This document shows, one piece after another, positions 192 through 44,601 of a DNA stretch of 64,000 nt; position 1 is the first letter of the stretch; each line of letters opens with the position of its first letter. The stretch is from a virus. Position numbers and translations under genes: made by a program. A model generated the notes under the pieces. The model worked only from the letters and a program-made list of their open reading frames with translations, ran no database searches and was not told where the DNA came from. The stretch covers positions 1-64,000 of IMG/VR virus record IMGVR_UViG_3300042389_001739; one strand, written 5' to 3'.

Positions 192-783
192 GATTTACTT
201 TTCTAAAGTTTGGTTTTGTGTTGGCCCGCAACCAGGCTGCCTGGGTATTCTGTGCCGCAACCTGTGCTGCACGGTATTCCGCATTTCCTGCAACATCATC
301 TGCCGCATCCCTCGCCGCAGCCCCTGCCGCAGCCGCTGCCGCAGTACATGCCGCAGCCCACGCCACATTATACGTTGCAGCCCTTACCGCCCTTGCTGCA
401 TGCCATGCCGCAGCTTCTTCCGTATAAAGTACCACAGCGTCTGCCGCAGTCCATGCCGCATCTAATTCCTCATCAGTTGCTTGGCCGTTAGCGTGTTTTT
501 CCGCAACCTCTACCGCATTTCTACTTCTTTCGTCTGGCATCAAATGCCAGATTTGACGACAGCAAAATACGGCGAACAAACGCAGTTGTTTGTCGGGCAG
601 CACGCCATCTCGGGTAGCTACCCAGATTAACGAGTTTGCATGCAACTTCTCCCAGCACTCCTGCAGCGATTTACAGTTATCGAGTGCCCATTCTCGCCCA
701 TCCTCGCACGCTTCGTGTAACTTGCAAAACTCTTTAATAGTCAAGTCAGATGCAACTGCTTTAGTTTTTGTTTGTTTTTGCAT
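178..783 (-). CDS. Paralog-family hypothetical protein (DLTIxEFCxLHxAC...GRxWAL family), Ala-rich C-terminus
   Basis: ORF 178..819; start moved to MQKQ at 783 (GGGGAG RBS upstream); motifs shared with four other ORFs in the window. Confidence 0.85.
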   Translation of the reverse strand: MQKQTKTKAVASDLTIKEFCKLHEACEDGREWALDNCKSLQECWEKLHANSLIWVATRDGVLPDKQLRLFAVFCCRQIWHLMPDERSRNAVEVAEKHANGQATDEELDAAWTAADAVVLYTEEAAAWHAARAVRAATYNVAWAAACTAAAAAAGAAARDAADDVAGNAEYRAAQVAAQNTQAAWLRANTKPNFRKVNHERT

Positions 784-10323: not shown

Positions 10324-10381
10324 AGATTCTCCATCAAAGAATTAGAAAAATTCGGCCCAACCTATTGAGCCAAAAGGGGAA

Positions 10382-10625
10382 AAACCTGCACCACAGATAT
10401 CTCACTGTGATGCAGGTGACCCTGCCTTGCCCTGCCCTACCTTGCCCCGCCGCGCCTCGCCCCGCCAAGAGAAACCTGCACCACAGATATCTCACTGTGA
10501 TGCAGGTGACCCTGCCATGCCTGGCCCGGCCCCGCCACGCCTCGCCTTGCCCCGCCAGGAGAAACCTGCACCACAGGTATTTCACTGTGCTGCAGGTGAC
10601 CCTGCCATGCCTAGCCTTGCCATGC
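10382..10625 (-). ncRNA. Repeat array A: (GGY-NN)n tract + hairpin units, 90-nt period; putative guide-RNA array (VIPR-like)
   Basis: Constant AAACCTGCACCACAGATATCTCACTGTGATGCAGGTGACCCTGCC starts at 10382 and 10472; the copy at 10562 has three substitutions. Between them lie NN-RCC pentamer tracts (GGY-NN on minus): two full (10 GGY) and one partial (5 GGY). Confidence 0.85.
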
Positions 10626-10629
10626 TCTG

Positions 10630-11124
10630 TTAGTTTTTAGGTGGTTTAAAACATCCTACAGGTTTCAGTTTAGGCGGTGGTGCCAGATAGTCCGACTCTG
10701 TCGGATTCGAATGATGTTTAATTTCGCGTAACGATTTTTGCACCGCAACGAGCGACGCGCTGATTTTACGCGACTCAAGTTCATGTTGTCGCCGATCGAC
10801 TTCACCCAGCTGTGAAATGTCAACCTGATCCACGTGCCGTTTGCTGCGGCGGATCTTTTTTACACCCGTGCGAAATCTTTTAGCCTGGAATTCCACCGAT
10901 TCCGCGTCGGTCAAAACATAGACTGCACCTTTTACCGCACGTAAACTCCAACGCTTGCCTTGCGCCCAAAGTGCCTGCTCTAAAATTCCGGCTAACTGCA
11001 ACGCGACAAAATTCAAAGATTCAGGCGTAAAGTCTTCAACGCCAGCTATTTTGCTTACTTCGTCTGCAGGTATACAACTACCCTTTTCAAGGGTATCCAG
11101 AAATTTTAAATCGAAATTGGTCAT
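10630..11124 (-). CDS. Accessory protein of the RAMP/array locus (basic, helical; unknown function)
   Basis: ATGA-coupled (11121-11124) to the RAMP gene; stop codon abuts array A; basic stretch KRFRTGVKKIRRSKRH. Confidence 0.8.
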   Translation of the reverse strand: MTNFDLKFLDTLEKGSCIPADEVSKIAGVEDFTPESLNFVALQLAGILEQALWAQGKRWSLRAVKGAVYVLTDAESVEFQAKRFRTGVKKIRRSKRHVDQVDISQLGEVDRRQHELESRKISASLVAVQKSLREIKHHSNPTESDYLAPPPKLKPVGCFKPPKN

Positions 11125-11714
11125 GTAATCTCCTTAAAATCCGTAACCTCGAACAACCCAAATCGAGGGCGATAATCGCAAATGCCTACCGAACGGCCAG
11201 CAAGATGACAGATTCGTTCAAGATCGTCAACGTTGAAATCATAAAGATTAACTTCTATGTCTGCCGCCCACACATTAAAACGGGGACGATACCGCATAAT
11301 GCGCTTTGTCTGCACTCCAGCGCAGCGTAGATCCACGTATTTGTTGCCTGCATTCCAAAAGTCATCAATAGTTGCCTTCAAACCCACAGGGTGATCGTGA
11401 ATCAACAATGAGTCCTTTGTCACGATAACTCCAGCCAAGGCCTGCTTTTTCATCCGTAACTTAGTTGCCCCTGCGATTATCATTCCTTGTATGCAATCGG
11501 CAGTCAGTATTGGACGACGCTCCTTGTCATAGTAGAAGCCGTTGTACCAATCCAGTCTGGCAATCTCTATATAGTCTTCATCAGTCTTGTTTTTCTTTGA
11601 AGTGACTGCTTTTAACTGCTTACTTTCTTGGCTTAATGGATTAGCGGCACGTGAGGCGTGCATCAGTAGTGCACGCACCCCTTTAATAGAAAAACGAACG
11701 GAAGTTTCGGCCAT
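11121..11714 (-). CDS. Cas7/RAMP-fold RNA-binding protein (Vipr-like), 197 aa
   Basis: Start MAETSV at 11714 with AAGGA RBS. RAMP hallmarks: first strand VRFSIKGVRALLMH, ILTADCIQGMI (IPGSSLKG-equivalent), thumb IMRYRPRF, C-terminal Gly-rich loop AGRSVGICDYRPRFGLFEV. Confidence 0.8.
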   Translation of the reverse strand: MAETSVRFSIKGVRALLMHASRAANPLSQESKQLKAVTSKKNKTDEDYIEIARLDWYNGFYYDKERRPILTADCIQGMIIAGATKLRMKKQALAGVIVTKDSLLIHDHPVGLKATIDDFWNAGNKYVDLRCAGVQTKRIMRYRPRFNVWAADIEVNLYDFNVDDLERICHLAGRSVGICDYRPRFGLFEVTDFKEIT

Positions 11715-11843
11715 TAGCTGATTCCTTATTTTTGTTGCTTCCGCAGAAGCCGTTAAAATGTTTGTTTGTCCTGGCAGTAAAACTACTACCAGCACCTTAC
11801 ATTATCCGCCGCAACTGCATAGAAACCGCTGTTCTATTCAGTT

Positions 11844-12023
11844 AAACCTGCACCACAGATATCTCACTGTGATGCAGGTGACCCTGCCTTGCCCGGCCTT
11901 GCCATGCCGCGCCGTGCCTAGCCCCGCCAAGAGAAACCTGCACCACAGATATCTCACTGTGATGCAGGTGACCCTGCCCCGCCTGGCCCGACCTAGCCAT
12001 GCCTTACCATGCCCCGCCAAGCC
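11844..12023 (-). ncRNA. Repeat array B: two (GGY-NN)n tract + hairpin units, 90-nt period; putative guide-RNA array
   Basis: Same constant segment at 11844 and 11934; tracts at 11881-11928 (10 GGY) and 11971-12023 (11 GGY). Confidence 0.85.
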
Positions 12024-12034
12024 ATGTAATAAAC

Positions 12035-12063
12035 ATATTAACTCTTTAGTGGGACAAATACAA
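12035..12063 (-). promoter_or_regulatory. Sigma70-like promoter for array B and the RAMP operon
   Basis: Minus strand TTGTAT (12063-12058), 17-nt spacer, TAATAT (12040-12035); -10 ends 11 nt upstream of the first GGC. Confidence 0.6.
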
Positions 12064-44121: not shown

Positions 44122-44601
44122 CTATTCTTTAAATTTTTGACGGCGCAAATGAAATTCAACTACCTGATAATGCCCGTACTGCCCCGGCTGCCAGGGTGAT
44201 AATCCTTTGTATTTTCCTGCAATCTGTAATAACGACCAAAAATCAGCATCGTCAATTTCACTGGGCACAATGCAATTCAGCCCAATGGTTTGCCCGGTTT
44301 TAAGTGATTCATGCACACTCCACCGTTCTTTACCGTTATTGGTTTTCGGATAATAATGGCGGGCGAAGCAGTTTGGATGCAACTTGGCATCAATCTCGAT
44401 ATCCCAGCAAATTTTTTTAACTGTTTCCTGATGTCTGCCCAGCATATCCGCAGCAAGCACCATGTTGCTGTAGTGCCACGTAGGTAAAAACAAAATCTTG
44501 TTATCCAGGCTGCGCTGAAACGTATATCGGCCGTTTGGACCTTTTTGATTGCCCAGACTCGGATTTGTAAACTGGATTTTTACCGTCAGCTCACGCATCA
44601 T
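44122..44601 (-). CDS. Second small RAMP/Cas7-like protein
   Basis: ELTVKIQFTNPSLG first strand; HESLKTGQTI; Gly-rich loop AGKYKGLSPWQPGQYGHYQV. Confidence 0.6.
   Translation of the reverse strand: MMRELTVKIQFTNPSLGNQKGPNGRYTFQRSLDNKILFLPTWHYSNMVLAADMLGRHQETVKKICWDIEIDAKLHPNCFARHYYPKTNNGKERWSVHESLKTGQTIGLNCIVPSEIDDADFWSLLQIAGKYKGLSPWQPGQYGHYQVVEFHLRRQKFKE

Follow-up and report, generated by a model that had tools for sequence, protein, structure and literature searches.

When analyzing a 64,000-nucleotide stretch of viral DNA from the IMG/VR record IMGVR_UViG_3300042389_001739 (positions 1 to 64,000 of the record, hereafter the window), we found on its minus strand a compact locus of 1.7 kb that is very probably a VIPR (Viral Interference Programmable Repeat) system, with two genes flanked by repeat arrays, and thus of type II by layout, carried by an uncultured freshwater phage. 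VIPR systems consist of a RAMP protein, Vipr, a vap accessory gene, and guide RNAs, named vrRNAs, in which GGY triplets alternate with NN dinucleotides (Y, pyrimidine; N, any base) (bioRxiv 10.64898/2026.04.26.720920, 10.64898/2026.04.26.720927, and 10.64898/2026.10.15.759431). The initial annotation of the window, made without database searches, had suggested the name VIPR, and these three 2026 preprints show it to be genuine. The system is therefore already in print, and the present locus is a divergent addition to it, with 29 to 34% identity to the Vipr proteins of known phages. The complete record is 79,722 bp long with a GC content of 50%; CheckV estimates it to be 38% complete, and the genome of the carrier phage is estimated at about 200 kb.

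The first gene of the locus, vipr (11121..11714, minus strand), encodes a minimal RAMP/Cas7-like protein of 197 amino acids (P0001), which belongs to the Vipr-family RAMPs. A phmmer search against PDB sequences gave a single significant match, 36pp chain D, the "SUSP1 Vipr protein" (E value of 7.1e-19, residues 8 to 191 against 6 to 188). In the cryo-electron microscopy (cryo-EM) structure of the SUSP1 system, H17 and D177 contact the first G of the GGY triplet, R138 and W178 contact the second G, R179 contacts the pyrimidine, and K33 contacts the target backbone (10.64898/2026.04.26.720927). In an alignment of 73 family sequences, the SUSP1 residues H17, K33, R138, D177, W178, and R179 align to H19, K35, R143, D180, Y181, and R182 of P0001. 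R143 is invariant among the 73 members, and tyrosine is the commonest residue in the W178 column. The C-terminal glycine-rich loop of P0001, GRSVGICDYRPRFG, aligns to that of SUSP1 Vipr as well.

The initial annotation had called this protein Cas7/RAMP-like on the basis of sequence motifs and proposed structure prediction as a check. An AlphaFold2 model built on an alignment of 13 homologs (mean predicted local distance difference test score [pLDDT] of 90.7) has the RAMP fold, and the phmmer result adds that the protein is a homolog of SUSP1 Vipr. Foldseek searches of the PDB with this model returned Cmr4, Csm3, and type VII Cas7 backbone subunits for all of the top 40 matches, with a probability of 1.0, E values from 6.5e-5, and template modeling (TM) scores of about 0.5. 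P0001 shares with these proteins the RRM core, the thumb, and the glycine-rich loop; sequence identity to class 1 CRISPR RAMPs is only 8 to 13%. Among the PHROGs it matches phrog_4652, a family of unknown function (E value of 1e-36), while Pfam, NCBIfam, and PADLOC gave no family match, nuclease or other. P0001 is the only match to the Vipr-family profile in the whole contig.

The cassettes on both sides of the genes are built as vrRNAs are: GGY is conserved, NN is hypervariable, and the 3' tail is structured. All are encoded on the minus strand. A full cassette consists of 10 YNNGG pentamers (11 in the first), a 34-nt hairpin, and a 5-nt linker, and both arrays have a period of exactly 90 nt with zero indels in Tandem Repeats Finder, just as the initial annotation had described. 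Upstream of the genes, array B comprises cassette B1 (11932..12026), with 11 pentamers (12026..11972; NN = AT TT GG AT AA AT TA CG CA GG AG), the hairpin tail at 11969..11936, and the linker TTTCT, followed by cassette B2 (11842..11931), with 10 pentamers (11931..11882; NN = TT GG TA AC GC AT AA CG AA AG) and the hairpin at 11879..11846. Downstream, array A had been read as three units. Two of them are full cassettes, A2 (10470..10559; 10 pentamers at 10559..10510, NN = CT GG AA GA GT GG CG CA AT AG; hairpin at 10507..10474) and A3 (10380..10469; 10 pentamers at 10469..10420, NN = TT GG GA GC GG AA AG AG AA AG; hairpin at 10417..10384, then a T-run). The first unit, A1 (10560..10624), is truncated and degenerate, with only five pentamers (10624..10600; NN = AT AA TA AT AG) and a variant hairpin (10597..10564).

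The hairpin has a 13-bp stem and an 8-nt loop, with a folding energy of about -23 kcal/mol, and is identical in four of the five copies, again as first described; the A1 copy differs from the others by three substitutions, one of which creates a G-G mismatch. In its stem, a U-G wobble is able to pair only if the sequence is read from the minus strand, and this fixes the direction of the RNA. An Rfam search returned two sub-threshold chance matches only.

In a gap-free alignment of the four full cassettes, 15 of the 20 N columns were variable, compared with 2 of the 10 Y columns (C/T exchanges only), none of the 20 G columns, and 2 of the 40 tail columns. Variation is thus concentrated at the dinucleotides, which account for 15 of the 19 variable columns with none at GG (Fisher p of 1e-9). 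Within the contig, the first two dinucleotides (TT or CT, then GG) and the last one (AG) are nearly constant across these cassettes. The five tracts are the sole runs of at least four YNNGG units on either strand, in the window as in the whole 79.7-kb contig, and 100 shuffles yielded no such run. Together with the placement of the variation at NN, this shows that the pattern is beyond chance.

The minus-strand order of the locus agrees with the first description: promoter-like hexamers, B1, B2, a 125-nt spacer, the 197-amino-acid protein, the coupled 164-amino-acid protein, A1, A2, A3, and a T-rich end. The spacer after array B ends in an AAGGAA ribosome-binding site in front of the P0001 open reading frame (ORF). 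The accessory gene (10630..11124, minus strand) overlaps vipr by ATGA and is translationally coupled to it, and array A starts six bases past its stop codon. The T-run after A3 is followed by a further terminator-like hairpin, so that the operon is closed by the feature at 10341..10374 (minus strand; stem 10374..10351, then TTTTTCTAAT). A sigma-70-like promoter had been proposed upstream of array B. The candidate there (12035..12063, minus strand; TTGTAT, a 17-nt spacer, and TAATAT), read from the sequence, is tentative; its hexamers match the consensus at only three of six and four of six positions, and a promoter consensus scan did not call it. The contig has no match to Cas1 or Cas2 profiles, with positive controls, and no CRISPR-like array, in line with the initial annotation; apart from the 90-nt cassettes, it has a single tandem repeat, of 12 nt. 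Neither the locus nor a 25-kb part of the window had any megablast match among phages.

We predict with moderate confidence that the 164-amino-acid accessory protein (P0002) is the product of a divergent vap1-like gene; vap1 of type II systems is a predicted DNA binder (VIPR preprints). P0002 has no match in Pfam, PHROG, NCBIfam, or PADLOC, and tblastn against phages found nothing. Its close relatives, with about 60% identity, occur only at the same position in the closest loci. We compared the ORFs that directly follow 81 Vipr homologs, and 42 of these ORFs make up one accessory family of 150 to 179 amino acids. The profile of this family matches the genes adjoining vipr in Pseudomonas phage LESphi2 (E value of 2.5e-50) and in the Felix O1-like Escherichia phage tootiki (E value of 3.5e-31). 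Its match to P0002 is weak but collinear (16.8 bits in hmmsearch; hhalign probability of 79.6 and E value of 1.5e-5), and P0002 is its sole match among all ORFs of the contig. In the AlphaFold2 model of P0002 (pLDDT of 69.6), three helices and a beta-hairpin precede a long helical hairpin, and the end is disordered, proline rich, and basic; a protein atlas returned only unnamed viral (phage) clusters that resemble it in size and shape (TM scores of 0.66 to 0.78).

In Gordonia phage Trine (MH271318.1), gp40 is annotated as a coding sequence of 267 amino acids directly after the Vipr homolog (locus L004, 2585-3388), and its start runs across a 13-unit YNNGG tract (L004, 2625-2689). Only the C-terminal half of gp40 (residues 119 to 233) matches the accessory profile (E value of 8e-14), and the annotated start is probably over-extended across a vrRNA.

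We investigated the distribution of such loci in IMG/VR, where a scan found 175 loci encoding Vipr homologs, the best 80 of which were kept for tract counts. Tracts of at least five perfect YNNGG units were present in 61 of these 80 viral loci, 150 of them on the strand of the gene and 2 on the opposite strand, as expected from the suggestion in the initial annotation that homologs would have adjacent GGY-NN arrays. The nearest clade is made up of four viral contigs (L005-L008; 57% Vipr identity) and a contig of a metagenome-assembled genome (MAG) labelled uncultured Geobacter sp. (L085), this MAG being the only match for the accessory gene in the genome collection. Its members share the plan of the present locus, with arrays on both sides of the genes, the same accessory gene, and hairpin tails. 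These tails keep a loop motif (TGAAA...), while their 12- to 13-bp stems differ in sequence and are paired at every level, base pairs being counted from individual folds. Among known phages, Vipr identity by tblastn was 34% for Pseudomonas phages vB_Pae_LESphi2 and Medea1 and Gordonia phage Trine, the best phage matches, and about 29% for Felix O1-like phages.

The locus was also found in lake and freshwater metagenome runs under 24 study codes. We aligned the contigs of four lake runs to it; these are short-read assemblies, which break at the arrays. A variant cassette from the lakes has eight in-tract differences from A2, and all eight lie at N positions, those in the first two units included; the probability of this by chance is about 0.4^8. 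The variant cassettes may be paralogous units rather than alleles, and only NN changes either way. In addition, loose assembly ends in runs X4, X5, X6, and X10 (at window positions 10420-10560 and 11885-12026) continue into different tracts of CCNNR form. The guides in the arrays therefore seem to vary from one lake population to another, while vipr and vap are near-identical.

Compared with the SUSP1 type II system, the locus has the same two-gene operon with vrRNAs upstream and downstream, a Vipr of about 200 amino acids with the same GGY-contact residues save for W178, which is Y181 here, an accessory protein of about 150 to 165 amino acids that probably comes from the same distant family, and a conserved structured tail. 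The number of YNNGG repeats in the full cassettes lies within the published vrRNA range of 9 to 16 units (VIPR preprints), and both systems are phage borne with no cas genes. It differs from SUSP1 in the low Vipr identity to the Felix O1-like phages, in its simple 13-bp hairpin tail with no evident pseudoknot, in its very divergent accessory protein, in its fixed 90-nt cassettes, of which two lie upstream and three, one of them short, downstream, and in its carrier, an uncultured freshwater phage of about 200 kb by estimate. With LESphi2, Medea1, and Trine it shares YNNGG tracts adjoining the vipr gene and a downstream gene that matches the same accessory profile; however, array positions and tails differ, and there is no nucleotide similarity. 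In LESphi2, a temperate phage, the vipr locus lies beside the CI repressor. Unlike class 1 CRISPR loci, the present one has no CRISPR array, Cas1, Cas2, Cas6, large subunit, or contiguous spacer, and the guide has a period of 5 nt with two informative bases in VIPR, compared with 6 nt and five informative bases in class 1 CRISPR.

By analogy with SUSP1, a minus-strand transcript of the operon would be processed into RNAs of about 90 nt, each of them bound by about 10 Vipr protomers, one to a pentamer, in a helical filament. Such polymerization along a guide with periodic base flipping resembles that of class 1 RAMPs, an analogy drawn in the literature. The initial annotation had proposed that protomers hold the GGY and present the NN for pairing; the cryo-EM preprint describes just this for SUSP1, refined in that each GGY is shared by two adjacent protomers and that one base of the target is skipped for every dinucleotide (10.64898/2026.04.26.720927). 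Transferred to P0001, recognition of the first G would fall to H19 and D180 and that of the second G to R143 and Y181, and the pyrimidine would be read by R182 together with the pocket of the neighboring protomer. The displayed dinucleotides would pair with double-stranded DNA that follows the pattern NNxNNx..., one base being skipped per unit; the site of a full guide would span 29 bp, of which 20 bases are informative. As in SUSP1 and the P. fulva prophage system, the bound filament, with a gapped R-loop triplex, would then block transcription. The outcome expected is the silencing of a competing mobile element rather than cleavage, because neither protein matched a nuclease or any other family in Pfam, NCBIfam, or PADLOC and because the published type II VIPR systems repress and do not cut (VIPR preprints).

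We searched for targets of the guides under the one-nucleotide-skip rule. Within the 79.7-kb contig, the best self-matches reached 68 to 75%, short of the published threshold of 80% and not above the matches obtained with other skip lengths. Exact patterns of B2, A2, A3, and B1 (10 units) had no match in IMG/VR, and the exact patterns of B1 (11 units) and A2 had none in the JGI metagenomes. A 16-base core of B2 gave 14 matches in IMG/VR at eight independent sites, about the number expected by chance, since the estimated size of IMG/VR is a few times 10^10 bases. The guides scored no better than shuffled guides against the 81 Vipr loci, and the guides of the relatives gave chance-level scores against the source contig. 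Action against competitors is what the other VIPR systems would suggest by analogy; in the two experimentally studied VIPR clades, most assignable targets are satellites or prophages (VIPR preprints).

The best of the eight sites matching the B2 core was considered as a candidate and rejected. There, B2 matches a CI-like repressor ORF at L089:2887-3420 (IMGVR_UViG_3300001525_000531) at 19 of 20 bases. We judged this match to be chance because about one is expected, the skipped base falls at codon position 1 rather than at the wobble position, and there is no second guide; the other guides had no match within three mismatches in that contig. By eye, the translated ORF has a helix-turn-helix domain and an S24-like C-terminal part.

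Several points weigh against reading the locus as a type II VIPR system. The type II label comes from the layout and not from the phylogeny of the preprint authors, the tail is a plain hairpin with no evident sign of the pseudoknot of the SUSP1 clade, and the link between P0002 and the accessory family is weak (16.8 bits; 79.6% in hhalign). A PDB sequence search, Foldseek, and a VIA wide search with P0002 returned generic helical-hairpin matches and nothing specific. The promoter candidate is weak by the Escherichia coli consensus, which may not be that of the host, and there is no RNA run among the sequencing runs that contain the locus. The contig covers about 38% of the phage genome (CheckV), and no target was found for any guide in the searches above.

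The lack of a mobile-element target in IMG/VR also lends something to the idea that a working Vipr-vrRNA pair is aimed at host genes, such as those of defense, or at genes of the phage itself to control their timing, and the self-target test covered only 38% of the genome. We nevertheless give this a small chance, as satellites and prophages make up most of the assignable targets in the two clades studied by experiment, natural VIPR guides have no self-match at 80% or more (VIPR preprint), and none reached that level in the 79.7 kb searched here. The absence of a target can also be set beside the identical tails, the five-pentamer A1 with its mismatched hairpin, and the nearly constant first two and last dinucleotides of the four full cassettes, all of which would fit a decaying or partly functional locus whose recently duplicated cassettes serve at most as decoys for the Vipr proteins of other elements. 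However, both ORFs are intact and coupled, all of the contact residues are kept, and variation at NN with GG untouched is a signature of selection on guides; with the locus recurring in lake metagenomes under 24 study codes and with variant guides, we regard this explanation as very improbable.

It is scarcely credible that the repeats are not RNA genes at all but protein-coding or G+C-rich satellite repeats that flank an RRM-fold protein by chance. ORFs of 83 to 111 amino acids do run across the arrays, but they do so on both strands because GGYNN tracts have no stop codons. Moreover, the variation has a period of 5 nt and not 3 nt, the wobble pair forms on one strand only, the stem covaries in the relatives, and tracts accompany Vipr homologs in 61 of 80 loci on the strand of the gene (150 versus 2).

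Read as a VIPR system, the locus takes the published family into an uncultured lake phage with a genome of roughly 200 kb and a Vipr about 30% identical to those studied, a distance over which the residues that contact GGY and the RNA anatomy of tract plus tail are retained. What is known of the VIPR class as such is unchanged by it. Its uniform 90-nt cassettes and simple hairpin tail could make it suitable as a second test bed for the noncontiguous code. We also considered whether the freshwater clade (the present locus, L005-L008, and L085) is a distinct VIPR subtype, which may be marked by a tail made up of a hairpin alone, by divergence of the accessory protein, by fixed 90-nt cassettes, and by a near-constant last dinucleotide (AG) and, in the present contig, near-constant first two. 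Taken with all these marks and a role for the constant units, a separate subtype seems unlikely. Were it real, the constant units might be an assembly handle or an anchor resembling a protospacer-adjacent motif (PAM), about seven programmable dinucleotides would be left per guide, and the targets might belong to a new class.

Elsewhere in the window, an ORF of 159 amino acids (44122-44601, minus strand) has no BLASTP similarity to P0001 and no match to the Vipr profile and is not of the Vipr family by sequence. The contig also encodes a portal homolog, with 26% identity to the portals of 180-kb Vibrio and Salmonella phages. The 12-nt tandem repeat lies at window positions 300-364 (CTGCCGCAGCCC, five copies) and is unrelated to the pentamer arrays.

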